NCBI GenBank assembly: GCA_964482505.1
Contig: CAYZYD010000001.1
Coordinates: 1-25,358, forward strand
Length of the DNA stretch: 25,358 bases
Direction of reading: 5' to 3'
From: an uncultured Planctomycetia bacterium
GTDB lineage: Bacteria > Planctomycetota > UBA8108 > UBA1146 > JAJFFE01
Shown here piece after piece: positions 1,665 to 19,934 of the stretch (the stretch's first letter is position 1; the number at the start of each line of letters is the position of its first letter). The position numbers and the translations under genes were made by a program. The notes under the pieces are model-generated. The model was not told the DNA's origin and made no database searches. It saw nothing but the letters and a program-made list of their open reading frames with translations.

Positions 1665-1832
1665 CTAGTGTCCTGTTCGAAAAGTTCGAGCAAGAATCGC
1701 CGGCCCTCGACCTCCCTGGCGTTGTTGCCGCTCCTCGAAGGAGTTACCAATCCGACTTGCGTCGCGGCGCCTAGCCAGGAAGGCCGAATGGCTCGCCGAG
1801 TTCTCACTCGAACTTTCCGAACAGGACACTAG
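1665..1832. mobile_element. MITE-like non-autonomous element: 22-bp terminal inverted repeats flanked by CTAG
   Basis: The left end TGTCCTGTTCGAAAAGTTCGAG (1669-1690) and right end CTCGAACTTTCCGAACAGGACA (1807-1828) are reverse complements with one mismatch. CTAG flanks both sides (1665-1668 and 1829-1832). The interior is self-complementary, there is no transposase, and a related half copy lies at 19863-19934. Confidence 0.75.
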
Positions 1833-2905
1833 AGCGGCACCTGCCACTGATCCTCGCGAACGTTATTGGCGATCTTGAGCGCCCCCGTCGCGACGAGCAG
1901 TCGGTAGTCTTCGGGGATTACGACGGTCGCCCCTTCGTAGCCTTCGCCGCGAAGCTTCTGCTGAATCAGATCCTTGAGACCGCGGATCTGCGAACCGCCT
2001 CCCGCAAGGATGATGTTCTGAAGCACATGCTCAACGGCGTCCGACTCGACCTTCGAGAGAAGCTCACGAATCGAACTCAAGATCGGCTCGACCACAACCT
2101 CGCAGCATTCGTTCATAATGTCTGAGAAGTCGACCGTCTTCGGCTTACCGTCGACGTAAACCTTGATCTTCGCGTCCTTCTTCTTACCGACGAAGGCGTG
2201 ATTCTCCTTCATCTTGGTGATCGTGACGCGAGTGAGTCGGATATCGGGGAAGCGTTTGGAGATGATCTCTTGGAGTCGCTCGTCGATCGCGTCGCCTGCG
2301 ACCGGAACACTGACCTGATCGTTGGGGCCCGGATAGTAACCCTGCACGAGACAGCAGTCGGTCGTTCCCGCTCCGATATCGACGATCAGCGAGTGCTTCG
2401 TCGGATCGATATAGCTTGCGTCCTCAACCGCGCGCTCGTCGTCGCGCAACCCCATGGCCGCGAGGAAGGGCTCGGGCACAATCAGGATTCGGTCGAGCAC
2501 TCCGGCGAAGACCGATCGAATGATTTTCTGCTTCTCCTCCGACGCATTGGCGGGTGCCCCGACGATGCCCCAGAGTTCGCTATTACCCTTGGGATCGATC
2601 TGTTCGCGCAGGAACTTGGCGAAGTCACCGCAGACTTTGGGGTCGTCGACAAAGCCCTTCTTGAGCGGCCACTTGAGATCGAGGTGGAGCCGATACTCGA
2701 GCGCATTTTCTCCGAAGAGCACGTTGTTGTCGGTCGGGAGGATGCCCGGAATGATGCCCGGCTTTGAGTAGCCGACGAGCGACGGGTAGACGCACTGCTC
2801 GTAGTTGATCGGCTTGCCATCTTTTGAGGCGCGAAAAACGCTAGTGTTGGTTCCGAGGTCGATACCGACACGGAGAATGGTCTTGCTTGCGGTCTTCTCC
2901 GCCAT
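1829..2905 (-). CDS. Actin-like ATPase, MamK-like rather than canonical MreB
   Basis: Actin-fold motifs GIDLGTNT, VPEPF, VDIGAGTTD and LAGGGS. It shares PGPxDQV and LQNIxxAGGGSxIRGL with MamK as I recall that sequence. ATG2905 has AGGAG 7 nt upstream; 358 aa. Confidence 0.88.
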   Translation of the reverse strand: MAEKTASKTILRVGIDLGTNTSVFRASKDGKPINYEQCVYPSLVGYSKPGIIPGILPTDNNVLFGENALEYRLHLDLKWPLKKGFVDDPKVCGDFAKFLREQIDPKGNSELWGIVGAPANASEEKQKIIRSVFAGVLDRILIVPEPFLAAMGLRDDERAVEDASYIDPTKHSLIVDIGAGTTDCCLVQGYYPGPNDQVSVPVAGDAIDERLQEIISKRFPDIRLTRVTITKMKENHAFVGKKKDAKIKVYVDGKPKTVDFSDIMNECCEVVVEPILSSIRELLSKVESDAVEHVLQNIILAGGGSQIRGLKDLIQQKLRGEGYEGATVVIPEDYRLLVATGALKIANNVREDQWQVPL

Positions 2906-2953
2906 GCAGGGGCTCCTTTCAGCCGCCACTCCCGACCCGAGCCGAGAGTTTCG

Positions 2954-2977: not shown

Positions 2978-5062
2978 TCACTTCTTTTTCGCGAGGTGAC
3001 CGTCGACGAGTCGCGGCTCGGCGAGCACGCGGATAATCGACGTATAGTCTTCATTCGACGCCGGAAAGAGTCGCGGCGCCATTGCTACGGATCGGCTCGC
3101 TTCGCGACGGAACTGAAGTAAAACCTGCGGGAATTCGGGACGGTCGGGTTCGTTGCGAACTACGACCCCGAGTTCGCCGGTGGCGAGTTCCACCCACGAT
3201 CCGACGAGGTAGAGCCCGTGCGCCCTGACGCAGCGAGCGAGACCCGCCTTGAGGACAGGTTCGGCGCCGAGTTTCCGGTAATGGCGTTCGACATGGGGGC
3301 GCCACCCCGCCACTCCGTCGGGCTTGGACCGAGTTAAGTGCGAGGCCGCTCGCCAGAGTTCGAGATCGCTACGCTCGAGCGCTCGATCTTCGCCGCAGTC
3401 GTAGCCCGGCAACTCGCGGAGATCGGCGACCGATTGCTCGAGCTTTTCAAAGAGTGGCGGCTCTTCATTGGAAGTATCGACGAGGGCGGCGAGGACAACA
3501 TCGCGCCAGCGCCGGGTGAACTCCGCTCCGGGCTCGAGTTCGACCCCGAGTATGGAAAGCGCAAAGGCGAGGCTCGACCAGCTCAGTTCAAATGGCGAGG
3601 GGTTCGGAGTCGGACGCGTAAGCTCAGAGAGCGCGAGCGCCCGACACCACTCGCCCGGGCTCGCCTCCTCAACGAGCCTGGCAAACGCTTCGAAGTCGAG
3701 CTCTTCACGATTGAAGATCGAGCGGAGGAGCGCCCGCCAAGCACGCTCGAGTCGCGCGAGCGATCGATACTCTGGAAAGGCTTCGAGCGACATCAACGGA
3801 CGGCATAGAGACAGGGCCGAGGATGGACTCGAAACGGTAGCAGTCGACGCTTGTGCCAACTCGGCTTCGACGGCGAGTCGCCGCTGTCGTTCGTCCTCGT
3901 ACTTGGCTCGGATCGAATCGACCGTCTCTTCGAGTTGGCTCGCTTCGGCGCGAACCCGCTCGAGCTCGGCATTTCGTTGCGCGATCAACGTGAGCAGCTC
4001 CCCGACTCCGCCGAGTAGTTCGGGATTCGATTCAGCCCCGCTAGTCCGCCCTGGTGATAGCCCAGGCGACGACGGTTCGCCGGCTTCTGTAGCGGGGCTT
4101 TTGACCTCTCGCGGCGCCCGAGGCGCGGGACGGTCCTCCTCGCGGATCCGCTTCGCCTTGGCCCGGAGTCGTTCTTGACCGGTGCGCGGCTCGTCGGGCG
4201 CCGCGGGTCGACTCGCCTCGAGAATGGGATCTTCAAAGTTCGCGAGCGGTCGCTCGGGCGGACGCTTCGAAGACTGCTTCTGCGCTTCGTGCGCGAGATA
4301 TGAGATAGCGCCCCCGTCGCGACGGCTCTCAATCGGCTGCTCTGCGGGCAGCGGCCGCCAACCCTCTGAAAACTCGAGTCCACTCTCGGGGATATCGTGG
4401 TAGTCGCGATCGTCCGAGGGGCTGTCGAGATAGGTGCGCTCGAGATCGAGATCTATTTCGAACGACTCCGGTTCGGAGAGCTCGATATCGACAAACGACG
4501 GAGCCGACTGGTAGGCGGTCGCTCCCGGCGACGAGCGGGTGTCGCCCTCTCTCTTGGATTGGCTCGGGCTCTCCCGAACCGGGCCAGGCGCGGGCTCGCC
4601 ACCACTGCCGAGCCGCTCTTCGAGCGCGGCCAAGATCTCGGCATCGGTCAGCCCTTCGAGACCCTCTTCGGTATCCGCTTCCGGATCGACGCCAAACGAA
4701 ATCGACCACTCGCCCGCGCTGGAACTCCCCTCCCACGGCGCGAACTCCTCCATCGGCGATAGGAACGGGGCTTCATCGAGCCGCGTCAACCGATCGAGTC
4801 CGGGGCCGGGCCCGATAAAGTTGAGCGCGCCACAAGCGCGAAGCGGAGCGACGTGCTCGAGCAGTTCGTGGATCGCACGCGTGTCGATGTAGGCGACGAG
4901 ACGAAAGTCGAGGTAGATCGCGAGCTCCGCGCCAGACTGCGCCTTCGAAGCGACCTCGGAGCGGAGCGGCTCCCAGTGATCGGGCTCGATCAAGAGCGAA
5001 TCAAACCGCCCCGACAAGACGAGGTGGAGCGCGTGCGCCTGGTGGTGGAACTCAAACTTCAT
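2978..5062 (-). CDS. Multidomain protein: STAS-like domain, acidic/Pro-rich linker, coiled coil, degenerate HD-GYP-like C-terminus
   Basis: ATG5062 overlaps the upstream stop (ATGA); 694 aa. STAS-like segment YLDFRLVAYIDTRAIHELL. Heptad stretch IAQRNAELERVRAEASQLEETVDSIRAKYEDERQRRLAVEAELA. The C-terminal GLYLVGSWVELATGELGVVVRNEPDRPEFPQV matches the YPvGSlVeLntGEvgvVv extension of HD-GYP proteins. Confidence 0.7.
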   Translation of the reverse strand: MKFEFHHQAHALHLVLSGRFDSLLIEPDHWEPLRSEVASKAQSGAELAIYLDFRLVAYIDTRAIHELLEHVAPLRACGALNFIGPGPGLDRLTRLDEAPFLSPMEEFAPWEGSSSAGEWSISFGVDPEADTEEGLEGLTDAEILAALEERLGSGGEPAPGPVRESPSQSKREGDTRSSPGATAYQSAPSFVDIELSEPESFEIDLDLERTYLDSPSDDRDYHDIPESGLEFSEGWRPLPAEQPIESRRDGGAISYLAHEAQKQSSKRPPERPLANFEDPILEASRPAAPDEPRTGQERLRAKAKRIREEDRPAPRAPREVKSPATEAGEPSSPGLSPGRTSGAESNPELLGGVGELLTLIAQRNAELERVRAEASQLEETVDSIRAKYEDERQRRLAVEAELAQASTATVSSPSSALSLCRPLMSLEAFPEYRSLARLERAWRALLRSIFNREELDFEAFARLVEEASPGEWCRALALSELTRPTPNPSPFELSWSSLAFALSILGVELEPGAEFTRRWRDVVLAALVDTSNEEPPLFEKLEQSVADLRELPGYDCGEDRALERSDLELWRAASHLTRSKPDGVAGWRPHVERHYRKLGAEPVLKAGLARCVRAHGLYLVGSWVELATGELGVVVRNEPDRPEFPQVLLQFRREASRSVAMAPRLFPASNEDYTSIIRVLAEPRLVDGHLAKKK

Positions 5063-5889
5063 CGGAGCGGCTCGAATGACGAAAGCCCTTCGGATCGCGC
5101 GAGCAACTCTTCGAGCTGTCCCGCGCTCGCTGGTTGGGAAGTGTTTCGGGTGTCGTAGAGGAGTGCTTCGCGCTGATCGGGCGCGGCTTCGAGAAGGCCG
5201 AGAAGCTCCTCGACTCGCGCATTCGCCAACCCGAGTTCTGCGCCGATCCCCGCCGGACCCGAACAGTCCGAGAGCAAGAAGTATCGCTCTAGTGCTTCGG
5301 CTAACTCGATCGGGTTCCACTCCTCGCGATCGAGATTGTCACGAATCCGGAGGCTGAGCGCCTCGCGTTCGCCGACCTTGAGGATCCGAGCGGGCACCGA
5401 ACTCCAACCGAGCGACTTCGCCGCGAGGAAACGACGGTGACCACTGATGATGCAGTAACTCGATTGTCGCGAATGGCGGAGCAGGATCGGTTCGATCATG
5501 CCGAGCTGATCGAGCGAATGACGCAGCGATTCAAACTTCTCGAGATCGGTCGAGAGCCGCGGGTAAAAACCGTCGGCACGGATGCGGTCGAGCCGAATCG
5601 CATGAATCCAGCGACTCGGGGCAAGCTTTCGGGCGAGCCAGTCCCGCAGGCTTGGCCGCGAATTCGTTCCGCAGAAGGGACATGCAGATCCCGGAACCTC
5701 GCCGCGACAGACGCGGCACCGATCGTGATCGCTTGCCGGCCCAGAGTCGAAGAGGCGACGGAAGAGCCACGACTCACAACTCGGGCAGCGAAACACCTTA
5801 CCGCGCGCCGGCTCCTCCTCTTGAAAGTCCTCCCCACAATTCGGACAGGCGAACTCGGGCGGCTCGAGTTCGAGATCAGACTCGGGCAC
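5059..5889 (-). CDS. ParB/Srx N-terminal (CTPase) domain protein with an N-terminal double zinc ribbon
   Basis: Four CxxC pairs (CPNC, CPSC, CRVC, CPFC), then LGMIEPILLR...IISGHRRFLAAKSLG...RDNLDREEWNPIELAEAL. GTG5889 has GGAGG 7 nt upstream; 276 aa. Confidence 0.85.
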   Translation of the reverse strand: MPESDLELEPPEFACPNCGEDFQEEEPARGKVFRCPSCESWLFRRLFDSGPASDHDRCRVCRGEVPGSACPFCGTNSRPSLRDWLARKLAPSRWIHAIRLDRIRADGFYPRLSTDLEKFESLRHSLDQLGMIEPILLRHSRQSSYCIISGHRRFLAAKSLGWSSVPARILKVGEREALSLRIRDNLDREEWNPIELAEALERYFLLSDCSGPAGIGAELGLANARVEELLGLLEAAPDQREALLYDTRNTSQPASAGQLEELLARSEGLSSFEPLR

Positions 5890-8119
5890 GGTAGTACCTC
5901 CGACCGTAGTAGTAGGAGTAGTAGCCCGGAGCCCGTTCGGCCAGGCCGTTGAGGACGATGCCGAGGACTGGGGCGCCGACATCCTGCAGACCTTGGCGCG
6001 CCCAGTGCAGATCTTGGCTCGTCGTCTTACCGGCCCGGACGACGAGCAGAGTTTGGTCGGCGAACGCGGATAGGATCAGCGCGTCGGAGACGAGGTTGAG
6101 CGGCGGGGTATCGACGACGATGAATTCGTACTCCGCTCGAGCCGCGTCGATGAACTCGCGCATCCGATCCGTCGCGAGTAGCGCCGCGGGATCGTCGGGC
6201 TGCTCTCCTGCGGCCACCACGTCGAGCTTCGGAATGCGTGTCTTGTTGATCACCATCGTCGGAAGATTGGGATCGTAGATCGTCGCCACCGACTCTTGCG
6301 CCATCACGCGTTCGACCTCCCAGGGTCTGAGCCGTAATTTTGTCGGTAGCGGACTGGATTCGGCTCGAGTCGCCTCGAGCCGACTCAGTAGCGCCGCTTG
6401 GCGCGTGTACTCCTGACCGATGAGCCAGTCGGTGAGGCCGGGGACAAGACCGGTCCCGACCAGCGCGTGGACACGCGGTTGGCGCAGGTCGCAATCGACG
6501 AGCAGCGTGCGAATCCCGAGGAGTGCCGCCGACGCGGCGAGGTTCGTACTCGCGAGCGTCTTGCCCGCGGCGGGATCGGGCCCCGATACGAGCAGCACCT
6601 TCTGATCGTCGAGCCCGACGAGCACCTTCTTTGTAATGCTCTTAAAACCTTCTGAGAAGAGGCTCCGACCCGACACGTCGATCGACTCGATCTCCTCAGG
6701 CTTAAAGATCGGGATAACGCCGAGGCAAGGCGCGCCCACATGCTTTCGCAAGGTGTGCTGATTGTGGATGCGATGGTCAAAGAGCTCGACCCCGTAGACG
6801 GACGCGATACTCAGCACGATCCCGAGCATCATGACGAGCAGAAAGTAGTTTCGAAACGCGGGGCCGATCCGCCGCACCGTCCCGACCGGCTCGAAGACAG
6901 TGACGACCTCTTGGGCGAGCTGCGACGCCCCGACAAGCCCATCGAGAGTTGCTTGCAGATTACCGAGTCGCTCGCTCTTCTCCTTGCGCTCGCGCAAGAG
7001 CTTCTCGATCGGCGCTTCGTAGCGTCGAATCTTATCGAGTAGATCCTGGGTTTCGCTCCGGAGTTGGCGGGCGCGATCGCGCTGAGTCTCGAGTTTCGCC
7101 ATTTCGACCGAAGCGCGCGCTTGCGCCTCGCCAAGTTCGTCGAGATTGAGGTTTGCGGCTTCGCGCACGCGCCCCTGAAAGACCGATTCGGGATTGAGAA
7201 ACGAGGCGTAGACCGCCCGCTGAATCTCGAGGTCGCGCGCGGCCGACTGGTATTCGGGATGTTGCGGAGTGAACCGCCGCGCGACCTGGTCGAGCTTGAG
7301 TTCGGCCTCGATCACGGCCCTAGCCGTCGAGACGATCATGTCGTGTACCGGGAAGCCACTCGTGAGCGGCAAGAGCTCGAGCGGGGTCTCGGGCCGGCCA
7401 TCCTCGCGCTCTTGAGCAACGCGGCGAACGCGCTTGAGCTCTTGGCGAGCCCCCTCGACCTGACCCTCGAGCTCGACCTCCATCAGATCGAGCCGTGCGA
7501 TCTTGTCGTGCAGCGAGCGGGTCCAACCGTCGACACGATTTCCTCGCGGGATCTGCGCTTCGCGACGGAGACGATCGATCTCGACTTGAAGGGTCTCGAT
7601 CTGCGCCGCGACTTCGTTGACGTTTGCTTCAAACCGCTCGCGACTTCGCTCGACACTCTGTTCAAAATATCGTTGCGACGTCTCACGAATCGAATCGATC
7701 GCGACCTCGAGTACTTGAGCCGCCACGGTTCGATCCGGGGTGTGGTACGAGACGCGAACGAGGGTATTGGTCCCCTCGGTCGATTGAGGGTCGATGCGAA
7801 GAGCCGCCCGATTCCAGGCCAAAGCGAGATCGCTCCCACTCGCTTCGAGCCGTTCGCGAATCGAATCATCGAGACCGCGCTTGCGGACGAGTTCGACAAA
7901 TACCGGGAGCGAGAATGCCTCGAAGATCGGCATGCCTTTGAGCGCATCGCTCGAGAAGGTCCCCGCGCTTTGGGTGTTGACTTTGAGAAGCGCTCTGACT
8001 TCAAAGCGGTCGGGCTGCGCACGGAGGATCGCGACATTCACGGCGACGGTGAGCCCGAGCACCGTGAGCGCCAACCATTTGCGGCGTAGAAAAAGAGCTA
8101 TGATCTCCGTAAATTCCAT
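5876..8119 (-). CDS. Wzc/GumC-type polysaccharide co-polymerase fused to a bacterial tyrosine (BY) kinase
   Basis: Two TM helices flank a long coiled-coil loop. Walker A GPDPAAGKT, Walker A' VDCDLRQP, Walker B VVDTPP, and C-terminal tyrosine cluster YYSYYYGRRYY. The start at ATG8119 (MEFTEIIALFLRRKW) gives the usual Wzz-type N-terminus; 747 aa. Confidence 0.9.
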   Translation of the reverse strand: MEFTEIIALFLRRKWLALTVLGLTVAVNVAILRAQPDRFEVRALLKVNTQSAGTFSSDALKGMPIFEAFSLPVFVELVRKRGLDDSIRERLEASGSDLALAWNRAALRIDPQSTEGTNTLVRVSYHTPDRTVAAQVLEVAIDSIRETSQRYFEQSVERSRERFEANVNEVAAQIETLQVEIDRLRREAQIPRGNRVDGWTRSLHDKIARLDLMEVELEGQVEGARQELKRVRRVAQEREDGRPETPLELLPLTSGFPVHDMIVSTARAVIEAELKLDQVARRFTPQHPEYQSAARDLEIQRAVYASFLNPESVFQGRVREAANLNLDELGEAQARASVEMAKLETQRDRARQLRSETQDLLDKIRRYEAPIEKLLRERKEKSERLGNLQATLDGLVGASQLAQEVVTVFEPVGTVRRIGPAFRNYFLLVMMLGIVLSIASVYGVELFDHRIHNQHTLRKHVGAPCLGVIPIFKPEEIESIDVSGRSLFSEGFKSITKKVLVGLDDQKVLLVSGPDPAAGKTLASTNLAASAALLGIRTLLVDCDLRQPRVHALVGTGLVPGLTDWLIGQEYTRQAALLSRLEATRAESSPLPTKLRLRPWEVERVMAQESVATIYDPNLPTMVINKTRIPKLDVVAAGEQPDDPAALLATDRMREFIDAARAEYEFIVVDTPPLNLVSDALILSAFADQTLLVVRAGKTTSQDLHWARQGLQDVGAPVLGIVLNGLAERAPGYYSYYYGRRYYRARV

Positions 8120-8459
8120 CGCAACTCTCAGGGCTCGCCGGACCGCACCTTCAAAAACACGAGGCCGCCTCGAGTTATCGGCGTCGGTGGGGCAAAAATC
8201 TGAGAGCGGAATGCAAACTCGCCGCATCCGATTGAGAGCATTCCGATAAGTCGGCGCGCTCCACTCTGTCTGCGCCGCCGGAATCGAAGCTCGAGATAGA
8301 CTCGGTGGAATCGCAACTTCGAGCAATTCGGAATGACTCGATCAAAAATATTCCGGGGTTGCCTCGGGTGAATCCGTGATAATAGTACTTGGTCACTCTG
8401 AAGCGATGCGCATACTCACGGCAATTGCGGGAAGAGAGTCCGAAAGAGGGAGGAAACTC

Positions 8460-17505: not shown

Positions 17506-18810
17506 TTGCCATCGTTTGATCTCCCCGAGTGGCGGGAGAAGCCCACTCACGCACGCCCCCAACTCCCTCGCGCCGTCGCGCTCAAAGCGATCACCCCCGA
17601 CGATCCCGCCGAGATCTACCCCGATCTCGATCCGTTCGCCGAGCTCAAGAGTCTCGCAGGGACGGCGGGGCTCGACGTCGTCGCGACCCTGAGTCAACGC
17701 CGTAGCAAACCGCACCCGTCGACCTATGTCGGTAAAGGCAAACTCGAAGAACTCGTCGACCTCGCCGAAGAACACGAGGCGGAAGTCATCCTCGTCGACG
17801 ATCCGATCAGCCCGAGTCAGGGCAAGACGATCGAAGATCGCTCCGAGCGCCGCGTCGTCGATCGCGCCGAGCTCATCATGGATATCTTCGCCGTGCGGGC
17901 CCAGACACACCAAGCCAAACTCCAAGTCGAGCTCGCGCAACTCCGTTACTCGCAAAGCCGACTGACGCGGATGTGGACCCACCTCTCGCGTATCGAGGGA
18001 GGAATCGGCATGCGCGGACCGGGGGAGACCCAGCTCGAGACCGACCGCCGCATTATCCGGCGCAAGATCTCACTGCTGCGCGACAAACTCGACGATATCG
18101 AACAGCAGCAAGCGACCCAGATGAAGGGCCGTCGCGATGCGTTCAAAGTCGCGCTCGTCGGCTACACCAACGCGGGCAAATCGACCCTGTTCAAGCGACT
18201 GACCGCCCAGGACACTCTGGTCGAAAACCGACTCTTCTCGACGCTCGACACCAACACGCGCAAATGGGATCTCGATATCGGTCGCGACGTCCTGCTTTCA
18301 GATACCGTCGGCTTCATCCGCAAGCTCCCCCACTCGCTCGTCGCTTCGTTTCACGCGACCCTCGCCGAGGCGCGCGAAGCGGACCTCTTGCTCCACGTCG
18401 TCGACTCGACCTCGCCGACGGCCACCGAGGACATCGAAGTCGTCAACCAGACGCTCAAACAAATCGGCTGCTACGACCGGCCCACCCTCTTCGTCTTCAA
18501 CAAAATCGACGAGCTCCCCGAAGGCCAGCGCATCGAGCTCAACCATCTCGTCGCGAGCAGCGCGGGTCGCATCGCGATCAGCGCCCACACCGGTACTCAC
18601 GTCGACCATCTCATCGAAGAGGTGAAACGGAGAGCGCAAGCCGGAGAGTCGGTCGAGGAGTATCTCGTCCCTCACGATCGCGGCGATCTCGTCAACCGTC
18701 TCCACGATCGCGGTTCGATCGAGTCAGAAGAGTATCTCGACGGGGGAATCAAGATTCGGGTGCGGCTCTCCGCGGCCGAACGCAGTCGGTTCGAACGCCT
18801 CCTCAGTTAA
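17506..18810 (+). CDS. hflX: GTPase HflX
   Basis: YVGKGKLEEL, QLETDRR, G1 GYTNAGKST, G3 DTVGFI, G4 NKID. Confidence 0.96.
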   Translation: MPSFDLPEWREKPTHARPQLPRAVALKAITPDDPAEIYPDLDPFAELKSLAGTAGLDVVATLSQRRSKPHPSTYVGKGKLEELVDLAEEHEAEVILVDDPISPSQGKTIEDRSERRVVDRAELIMDIFAVRAQTHQAKLQVELAQLRYSQSRLTRMWTHLSRIEGGIGMRGPGETQLETDRRIIRRKISLLRDKLDDIEQQQATQMKGRRDAFKVALVGYTNAGKSTLFKRLTAQDTLVENRLFSTLDTNTRKWDLDIGRDVLLSDTVGFIRKLPHSLVASFHATLAEAREADLLLHVVDSTSPTATEDIEVVNQTLKQIGCYDRPTLFVFNKIDELPEGQRIELNHLVASSAGRIAISAHTGTHVDHLIEEVKRRAQAGESVEEYLVPHDRGDLVNRLHDRGSIESEEYLDGGIKIRVRLSAAERSRFERLLS

Positions 18811-18860
18811 CCGCGTCCCCGACGCCGCCACGACTTGAGAGGAGGATGAGAGAGATCGCG

Positions 18861-19808
18861 ATGCCCAGCGAACCCAAAACCCGACCGGTCATAGCGAGAC
18901 CCGGACCGCATCTTCTCAGTGCGAGTCGGCGTACGGATATCCCCGCCTTCTATATGGACTGGTTCGTCAACCGGCTCGAGGCGGGCTCGCTGCTGACGAT
19001 GAACCCCTTCGGTGGCCAGATCTACCGAATCGATTTATCGCGCGAAGCGGTCCGCGGGATCGTCTTCTGGACTCGAGCCCCGCGCGGGCTGCTTCGCCAC
19101 TTTGACCGAGTGGTTCGATTTTCTGAAGCGCTCTACTGCCACTTCACGATCACGGGGCTTTCGCGTCCATTCGAAACTCACAACCCTGCCCTCGCCAGCC
19201 AGATCGCCATGTTTCGGGCCCTCTCAGATCGACTCTCGCCAGAGCGACTGACTTGGCGCTTTGATCCGATCCTCCTGAGTTGCCGCACCGGCCCGGCGGA
19301 GACGATCGACCGCTTCACCCAGATCGCCCGCGAACTCGCCCCCTACACCGGCAAGTGCGTGACCTCGTTCGTCGATCGTTACGGCAAGACGCGGCGCGGA
19401 CTCGACCGGCTCGAACGAACCGCGGGCGTCCGAGTGGACGAGCCCAGCCTCGACGAACGCCGGGCGCTCGTCACTGACCTCGCGAGCCGCGCCGACGACT
19501 TCGGGCTCGAGCTCGAGCTTTGCACCGAACCCGAGCTCGAGGGTCTGGGGCTATCCGCCTCGGGTTGTATCGGTCAGCAAGTCGCCGAGCTTCTCGACCC
19601 CGACCGCGCCTACGATTCACAGCCGACGCGGACCGGTTGTACCTGCGTGCGCGCAGTCGATATCGGCGCCTACGACAGTTGCCCCTTCGGCTGTGTTTAC
19701 TGCTACGCGACGAATAGTCGCGGGGTGGCCCAGAAACGACTCGCCGCGCACGATCCCGAGAGCGCATGGCTCTGGCAGCCGCAGTCGCTGCACCCTCACC
19801 GCGCTTAA
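18861..19808 (+). CDS. DUF1848 family radical-SAM-like protein
   Basis: SASRRTDIPAFYMDWF, IVFWT and WRFDPI, with the C-terminal CTCVRAVDIGAYDSCPFGCVYCYA (CxxxCxxC). The track's 5' extension to 17973 overlaps hflX and is spurious. Confidence 0.88.
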   Translation: MPSEPKTRPVIARPGPHLLSASRRTDIPAFYMDWFVNRLEAGSLLTMNPFGGQIYRIDLSREAVRGIVFWTRAPRGLLRHFDRVVRFSEALYCHFTITGLSRPFETHNPALASQIAMFRALSDRLSPERLTWRFDPILLSCRTGPAETIDRFTQIARELAPYTGKCVTSFVDRYGKTRRGLDRLERTAGVRVDEPSLDERRALVTDLASRADDFGLELELCTEPELEGLGLSASGCIGQQVAELLDPDRAYDSQPTRTGCTCVRAVDIGAYDSCPFGCVYCYATNSRGVAQKRLAAHDPESAWLWQPQSLHPHRA

Positions 19809-19862: not shown

Positions 19863-19934
19863 TCGAGGAGCGACAACAACGCCAGAGAGGTTGAGAACCG
19901 GCGATTTGTGCGCGCACTTCTGAAATGAGACACT
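19863..19934 (-). repeat. Diverged half-copy of the 1665-1832 element
   Basis: The reverse complement aligns without gaps to 1667-1738 with 57 of 72 identities (counted by hand), including the shared CTGGCGTTGTTGYCGCTCCTCGA. Confidence 0.8.

Follow-up and report, generated by a model that had tools for sequence, protein, structure and literature searches.

A BeeR-like actin of an uncultured planctomycete and its linkage to genes for ParB-like and Wzc-like proteins

The 25,358-nucleotide stretch of planctomycete DNA analysed here, referred to below as the window, belongs to a metagenome-assembled genome (MAG) that consists of 615 contigs and is 82% complete. Its minus strand encodes a protein of the actin superfamily whose nearest characterised relative is BeeR and not the magnetosome actin MamK. 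Upstream of the actin gene, and on the same strand, lie genes for a Wzc-like protein, a ParB-like protein and a protein of 694 amino acids (aa). Analysis of the open reading frame (ORF) and its translation showed that the actin gene is intact and runs from the ATG at 2905-2903 to the TAG at 1831-1829. The gene and its features are as follows.

1829..2905, minus strand: BeeR-like actin gene, 358 aa and a TAG stop codon, from ORF and translation
2913..2919, minus strand: Shine-Dalgarno-like AAAGGAG, read from the sequence, with 7 nt between GGAG and ATG 2905
2840..2866, minus strand: phosphate-1 loop GIDLGTNTS, residues 14-22; G14, D16 and G18 are invariant in an alignment of 33 sequences
2393..2446, minus strand: BeeR-type insertion RDDERAVEDASYIDPTKH, residues 154-171, in the interval from the EPF hinge helix to phosphate-2
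2357..2380, minus strand: phosphate-2 loop DIGAGTTD, residues 176-183; D176 and G178 are invariant, and G180, T181, T182 and D183 nearly so
1991..2002, minus strand: adenosine-binding GGGS, residues 302-305; G302-G304 are invariant in the 33-sequence alignment
1832..1852, minus strand: C-terminal tail DQWQVPL, residues 352-358, with W354 invariant; the protein ends REDQWQVPL

The protein also contains the hinge motif PEPF (residues 144-147), which includes the catalytic Glu, and the sequence YPGPNDQV (residues 191-198). The nucleotide-binding motif set, the PEPF Glu included, is complete, and all of the MamK-type motifs to which the original prediction had drawn attention (EPF, DIGAGTTD, GGGS, PGPxDQV and a tail containing Trp) are found in the 358-aa translation. 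The N-terminus is short, with 9 aa ahead of the first strand and 13 aa ahead of the phosphate-1 motif. This short form is supported by the AAAGGAG sequence, which is well placed for ATG 2905. Translation from an in-frame GTG (2929), which is less likely, would lengthen the protein by just 8 residues; the stop-to-stop frame of 381 codons leaves at most 23 extra codons 5′ of ATG 2905.

Profile searches gave 405.4 bits (E 1.8e-121) for the BeeR model of NCBIfam (NF053558, cut-off 530), and 249.1 bits for the MamK model (NF040964), which is below its threshold of 400. Models specific for MreB gave only 55-65 bits, their cut-offs being 293-366 (PRK13927, 64.8 vs 293; TIGR00904, 55.1 vs 365.75), and the Pfam family MreB_Mbl was passed with 78 bits against a gathering score of 27. 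When the sequences of the PDB were searched, the BeeR filament of Opitutus terrae (8r2n) scored 322.8 bits, MamK ~164 and MreB ~45. An AlphaFold2 (AF2) model of the actin was calculated from 33 homologs and was confident (pLDDT 94, pTM 0.90). Its top match in Foldseek was the BeeR subunit 8r2n_A (TM 0.94/0.95, root-mean-square deviation 1.6 Å, 43% identity), followed by MamK 5ljv (TM 0.84/0.92, 32% identity) and then by eukaryotic actins. The predicted actin fold thus superposes on the BeeR filament subunit, and the ATP-binding and ATP-hydrolysing residues are intact. The original prediction had assigned the gene to MamK rather than to MreB. Its view that, among bacterial actins, the gene sides with MamK and not with MreB stands, as shown by the low MreB scores and by a separate MreB that the genome encodes on contig C316; the choice of MamK as the closest relative does not, since BeeR is closer both by profile score and by fold. 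By homology, the protein would be expected to bind ATP and to polymerise into polar filaments with longitudinal contacts resembling those of MamK and BeeR.

Trees were built from an exhaustive representative search (730 clusters at E ≤ 1e-3, 111 at E ≤ 1e-30), together with planctomycete homologs and with the MreB of this genome as outgroup. Besides a quick tree we calculated a careful maximum-likelihood tree with IQ-TREE (LG+C20). Groups were anchored on P0128, which exceeds the BeeR cut-off (562 > 530 bits), and on P0157, which exceeds that of MamK (508 > 400 bits). Five groups, each forming one side of a branch, were recovered in both trees. MAMK (27 rows; support 88/98 in the careful tree and 99 in the quick one) holds P0157 and a second actin of this genome, encoded on contig C162, and BEER (99/99) holds P0128. 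The window actin lies outside both. It falls in WIN (93/59; core 97/93). The other two groups are a second planctomycete BeeR-like clade, PL2 (96/94), and a basal group, BAS (99/100). Phylogeny had been proposed as a check on the assignment, and in the LG+C20 tree the actin groups neither inside MreB nor inside MamK. On these trees, the window actin belongs to a Planctomycetota clade of its own, beside but outside BeeR proper. The representative search also returned eight long proteins of 700-1232 aa (P0162, P0171, P0172, P0184, P0187, P0194, P0200 and P0203). These fusion architectures end in a MamK-like actin domain of ~350 residues that is 33-36% identical to the window actin.

The named close relatives of the window actin are all proteins of Planctomycetota MAGs labelled 'rod shape-determining protein', and a search of genome contigs for related loci yielded 4 close ones. 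Defined by a score of at least 350 bits with the BeeR hidden Markov model (HMM), the window type is present in 12 of 401 sampled genomes of the phylum; within its class, 20 of 59 genomes and 17 of 26 genera have it. No sequence in the 401 sampled Planctomycetota genomes reached the BeeR cut-off of 530 bits.

Additional support for the relationship with BeeR comes from the region ahead of phosphate-2. In HMMER alignments, residues 154-171 pair with RDDARLGQSNYIDPVVN of 8r2n, and MamK 5ljw shows a 13-residue gap facing residues ~154-166. The insertion of about 13 aa relative to MamK that had been noticed in the sequence is therefore real, and in the alignment of 33 sequences its D167 and P168 hardly vary. 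Among 70 representatives, the EPF hinge and the phosphate-2 DxG are separated by 29-31 residues in WIN, PL2 and BEER, compared with 18 in every MamK-like sequence and a similarly short interval in BAS and MreB. Correspondingly, an insertion of 12-13 aa (R-D-D-x-R...Y-x-D-P) is present in the first three groups and absent from MAMK, BAS and MreB. A (D/E)QWQ tail is likewise common to WIN, PL2 and BEER, MamK-type tails being YW(E/Q). The window actin has both the insertion and the QWQ tail, a signature that was derived in the present analysis and not taken from the BeeR paper. Since the insertion is found across the BeeR-like clades, it is a mark of the family that amounts to a synapomorphy of BeeR sensu lato, and not a peculiarity of this gene. 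Consistent with this, an approximately unbiased (AU) test did not reject WIN, PL2 and BEER as a single clade (p 0.33). Defined by the shared insertion and tail, the BeeR-like branch thus has at least two more clades, both in Planctomycetota.

The insertion had also been suggested to be a partner-binding loop containing a Tyr. The Tyr is indeed present, and nothing ties it to a partner here. The Y-x-D-P core is retained in nearly all BeeR-like sequences regardless of their neighbours and is lost in one WIN subclade only. That this Tyr is the target of a kinase encoded in the same operon was rejected as a conclusion from co-occurrence, because the Tyr is kept in clades that have no kinase nearby.

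BeeR was described as a MamK-related actin 'conserved among Verrucomicrobiota' whose cellular function is not known, and which assembles with ATP into a tube of ~80 Å made up of three strands (Bergeron 2025, PMC11929497). A disordered N-terminal tail of 30-50 aa is called a 'hallmark' of BeeR, and both the paper and its preprint are silent on Planctomycetes and on genomic context (PMC11929497). The window actin resembles BeeR in being its best match by sequence and fold, in the insertion with Y-x-D-P, in the (D/E)QWQ tail and in the ATP motifs, and in both cases the host is a non-magnetotactic organism of the Planctomycetes-Verrucomicrobia-Chlamydiae (PVC) group. What is new here is a planctomycete relative of BeeR that scores below the family threshold, lacks the N-terminal tail and is linked to a conserved cassette of ParB-like, Wzc-like and HD-GYP-like genes. 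The members of this cassette other than the actin are listed below.

5876..8326, minus strand: Wzc-like polysaccharide co-polymerase or bacterial tyrosine kinase (BY-kinase) with a MinD/ParA-fold ATPase; TIGR01007 eps_fam, 143.6 bits vs 108
5059..5889, minus strand: ParB_N protein whose N-terminus bears a zinc ribbon; Pfam ParB_N, 61.6 bits; TIGR00180 parB_part, 66.7 vs 58.45
2978..5062, minus strand: 694-aa gene; STAS-like N-terminus, low-complexity linker, coiled coil, and a C-terminal helical domain with a small beta-barrel

Read along the minus strand, the Wzc-like gene comes first, then the ParB_N/zinc-ribbon gene, the 694-aa gene and, after a gap of 72 nt, the actin gene. The start of the 694-aa gene overlaps the stop codon of the ParB-like gene (ATGA). 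The ORF of the latter extends to 5982, and its true start is uncertain. Residues 207-551 of the Wzc-like protein form a chain-length-determinant region. In the window as well as at the distantly related locus L055, Wzc-like genes stand beside genes of the ParB family, and no wza, wzb or glycosyltransferase gene was recognised in their vicinity.

The 694-aa protein matched no family of Pfam or NCBIfam, and a homolog search with its C-terminal region returned only the protein itself. Its C-terminal ~290 aa are kept beside the actin at L012, L016, L017, L049, L061 and L073. An AF2 model of the C-terminal domain reached a pLDDT of 72. A wide structural search with this domain gave the HD-GYP proteins Bd1817 (3tm8, Z 8.3) and V-cGAP3 (5z7c, Z 7.7), values within a range that can be generic for helical domains, followed by KOW/SH3-like barrels. 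Foldseek found nothing significant in the PDB for the same domain, the best match being PDE10 (E 0.58). The models are thus suggestive only of an HD-GYP-like domain.

The four-gene set was also found beside actins that are 64-68% identical to that of the window, at L012/L015/L048, L049 and L061, and in inverted but adjacent arrangement at L017/L069. At L061, the homolog of the 694-aa gene comes in two pieces, of 175 and 308 aa. At L016/L072 and L073, a homolog of the 694-aa gene alone precedes the actin gene. Partner proteins of different cassette loci are only 26-40% identical, compared with 64-68% for the actins. Conservation of the cassette in at least six loci despite this low identity of the partners argues for selection on the linkage. 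At L055, a Wzc-like gene (736 aa; 6206-8416) is followed by a ParB gene (ParB_N + HTH_ParB) and by an actin gene whose product is identical to P0123. Because this actin belongs to PL2, the combination of Wzc-like, ParB and actin genes occurs in two separate BeeR-like clades.

Together these results indicate that the window gene probably encodes an intact, chromosomal ATPase of the actin fold that belongs to the BeeR-like branch of the MamK/BeeR superfamily and, within it, to a Planctomycetota-specific clade beside BeeR proper of Verrucomicrobiota. With regard to function, the linkage suggests that the filament may work together with the 694-aa STAS/coiled-coil/HD-GYP-like protein, the zinc-ribbon ParB-like protein and the membrane Wzc-like ATPase, in which case it could serve as a track or scaffold that places ParB-bound or envelope-bound cargo. 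This second part of the interpretation, in which the filament and these three upstream products would jointly position DNA or an envelope complex, is put forward only tentatively.

A number of observations count against one or the other part of this interpretation. The actin misses the BeeR equivalog cut-off, and the backbone that links the five groups of the tree was not resolved. Its N-terminal tail measures 9-13 aa, compared with ~40 in O. terrae BeeR and 43 in P0128; across the WIN clade, tail length ranges from 11 to 52 aa. Published cross-strand residues of BeeR (E149, E153, R157, R242, N246, R25x, I277, L284, T307, Q310, N38x and L385) were mapped via the HMMER alignment and a 70-row alignment, 'Arg 252' of the paper probably being R255 of O. 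terrae BeeR. Three lateral-contact positions that are among the better conserved are replaced in all eight WIN rows: E153 (E/D in 11 of 13 BEER rows) by K, R255 (R in 10 of 13) by T, and L384 (L in 8 of 13) by P. Finally, the cassette is limited to actins that are at least 64% identical and to one PL2 member, and relatives with 40-58% identity have other neighbours or no recognisable ones. A complex prediction with the ParB-like protein, residues 430-694 of the 694-aa protein (residues 348-368 being excluded) and the actin returned a score of 0.00; this is no answer, and it was not used as evidence.

Positions that are kept or conservatively changed in the window actin are E149 (E), I277 and L284 of the hydrophobic pocket (both V) and position 385 (the terminal Leu). 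Judging from the alignments, K127/D221 and K217/D352 could be substitute lateral contacts. As E153, R255 and L384 are replaced across the WIN rows, the filament architecture is not predictable. A three-stranded tube is possible and, with the N-terminal tail missing and lateral residues replaced, likewise not predictable. Neither the 'anti-bundling' tail at the N-terminus nor the whole of the lateral interface is thus common to all of the family, and filament architecture may differ among its members.

Different genes were found upstream of the more distant relatives. At six loci whose actins are 40-58% identical (L062, L063, L067, L068, L071 and L077), the upstream gene belongs to a family of 536-656 aa. 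It overlaps the actin start or sits 17 nt from it (L062:5014-6984, L063:5394-7004, and others), and at L062 and L063, the two annotated loci, rpmH and an SIS/CBS gene lie downstream. The C-terminal sequence 'PRGSWVRLTDG' of this partner resembles 'VGSWVELATGE' of the 694-aa protein. Profile comparison of this family with the 694-aa protein gave no significant match (hmmsearch E 1e-3; hhalign probability 6.7%). A complete genome of 7.9 Mb, also with an actin of 40-58% identity, has a gene for a 409-aa protein upstream instead. Loci of BeeR proper and PL2 often have a gene of 142-153 aa, 15-56 nt upstream, that belongs to no family (L057:1058-1513, L065:6519-6947 and L066:2757-3218); these small genes show no BLAST homology to one another. 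The small proteins of L057 and L066 share a C-terminal stretch of the type 'DLxxMxDxMLxxER', to which residues 348-368 of the 694-aa protein, a conserved amphipathic stretch of its family, are similar. By sequence similarity, this stretch could be a common actin-binding peptide.

The functional proposal can be extended to a four-gene positioning or partition module with the actin as its cytomotive part, which we consider possible and not probable. According to this explanation, the ParB-like protein would be a CTP- and DNA-binding adaptor that, together with the HD-GYP-like/STAS scaffold, couples cargo to growing filaments. The cargo would be either DNA or an envelope complex whose organiser is the membrane Wzc-like ATPase of the MinD/ParA fold, and the system as a whole would be an analogue of ParM-ParR-parC made of different parts. 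The conserved and tight gene order, with its ATGA overlap and 72-nt gap, its persistence in at least six independent loci and the recurrence of the Wzc-like, ParB and actin trio at L055 are consistent with such a module, and the ParB-like proteins of both the window and L055 score above the TIGR00180 cut-off. On the other hand, most BeeR-like actins have no ParB or Wzc neighbours. These include BeeR proper, whose examined loci show nothing of the cassette. No orthology between the ParB proteins of the window and L055 was detectable by tblastn, and the Wzc-like protein resembles a genuine polysaccharide co-polymerase, so that it may be a plain exopolysaccharide gene. Less probable still is a more specific form, in which the actin would make up an undescribed conserved module together with a membrane BY-kinase/MinD-fold ATPase, an adaptor of the ParB-family CTPase type and a scaffold with STAS, coiled-coil and degenerate HD-GYP parts. 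The actin filament would then act as the motor or track by which DNA or an envelope complex is put in place in FtsZ-less planctomycetes. If this were true, the recurrence of the trio in two BeeR-like clades would be the first genomic clue to the role of BeeR-like actins. The tight ParB-like/Wzc-like linkage of some members offers a testable handle on function.

A ParB-family gene in the same operon would also fit a ParM/Alp-like partition actin carried with its own ParB on a mobile element. The actin stop codon, moreover, is touched by a multicopy miniature inverted-repeat transposable element (MITE).

1665..1832, strand not given: MITE-like palindromic repeat of 168 bp, abutting the actin stop codon

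This explanation is nevertheless very improbable. The window ORFs of at least 150 aa include no recognisable gene for an integrase, for replication or for conjugation, and the GC content is unremarkable. The MITE is scattered genome-wide, and some of the chromosomal genes that flank the cassette (folB/HPPK and a short-chain dehydrogenase) are its neighbours in relatives too. As in ParMRC and Alp7AR type II systems, an actin-like ATPase stands beside a DNA-binding adaptor, and a functional analogy with the ParB-linked cassette is possible. The window actin differs from those systems in that the ParM, Alp7A and PRTRC models give only ~20-27 bits on it (~20-26 for ParM and Alp7A), in that the adaptor is of the ParB family and not a ParR ribbon-helix-helix protein, and in its chromosomal setting.

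Public annotation would make the protein a diverged paralog of MreB with a role in controlling the cell wall or cell shape. Apart from the Pfam MreB_Mbl match, this rests on the names of its database relatives, all of which are annotated as MreB or 'rod shape-determining protein'. We consider it highly unlikely, given that the specific MreB models remain far below their cut-offs, that sequence and structure are much nearer to BeeR and MamK, and that the MreB on contig C316 is a canonical one (469 bits). No mreCD, rodA or pbp2 gene is close by. The original prediction was correct in stating that no mreC, mreD, rodA or mam genes adjoin the actin, since none was recognised among the ORFs of at least 150 aa in the 25-kb window.

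This genome alone holds three members of the MamK/BeeR superfamily in addition to MreB. One of the paralogs, the MamK-like gene at C162:1010-2113 (minus strand; locus L002), scores 389 bits, just below the MamK cut-off of 400; C445:3-170 is a fragment of a further MamK-like paralog. Proteins of the C162 type are 70-80% identical to hundreds of Planctomycetota proteins, often with two copies per genome, and occur in about a third of the 401 sampled genomes of the phylum. The BeeR HMM matched 146 of these genomes at ~185-225 bits, mostly through this type. Because it is present across the phylum at such high identity, the C162 type is a housekeeping-type gene and not a magnetosome marker. An unannotated gene of 422 aa lies directly upstream of the C162 actin gene.

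The original prediction had called for a genome search for magnetosome genes; the HMMs of MamI, MamP and MamQ gave no match at E ≤ 1e-3 in the 82%-complete genome, so that, as far as this incomplete assembly goes, a full magnetosome cluster was not seen. In spite of the MamK score of the window actin, the near-threshold score of its C162 paralog and the incompleteness of the assembly, it is therefore extremely unlikely that the window gene is a dispersed mamK of a magnetosome cluster located elsewhere, the more so as its product lies outside the MamK group and bears the BeeR-type insertion and as the paralog type is phylum-wide.

Compared with MamK (5ljv, 5ljw and 5jyg), the window actin thus shares the superfamily, the EPF hinge, DIGAGTTD and GGGS, and similar longitudinal contacts would be expected from its sequence. 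It differs in its sub-threshold score and tree position, in the insertion, in having QWQ and not YW(E/Q) at its end, and in the lack of mam genes in the window and of MamI, MamP and MamQ in the genome. MamK-like actins outside magnetosomes are already published, namely saltatorellin in 2019 (bioRxiv 10.1101/817700) and BeeR in 2023/2025 (PMC11929497). Expression of saltatorellin, a MamK-like actin of Saltatorellus ferox, was shown to yield filaments both in E. coli and in Magnetospirillum (Wiegand et al. 2019, bioRxiv 10.1101/817700). Like the window protein, saltatorellin is related to MamK and comes from a host that is not magnetotactic; this host is related to Planctomycetota. The tail of saltatorellin, read off the published cloning primer only, would be ...YWEQLK, which is of the MamK type, as in C162 and C445, and not QWQ. 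As to the origin of the magnetosome cytoskeleton, MamK appears as one well-defined group within a larger and mostly non-magnetotactic MamK/BeeR superfamily.

The remaining ORFs of at least 150 aa in the window encode a LysR regulator, a pseudouridine synthase, HflX, a DUF1848 protein, a pyridoxal phosphate (PLP) decarboxylase, a fusion of major facilitator superfamily (MFS), acyltransferase and AMP-ligase domains, and several proteins without a recognised family. The assembly contains 25 near-full copies of the MITE at ≥ 95% identity and 133 partial ones. Since 131 of these 133 partial copies are at contig ends, the repeat is a main cause of the fragmentation of the assembly. A partial copy is present in the window at ~19863-19919. 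The DUF1848 protein is encoded by a 611-aa ORF at 17973-19808 on the plus strand, of which residues 315-579 match the family (259 bits); as this ORF overlaps the end of the hflX ORF, its true start is probably later.

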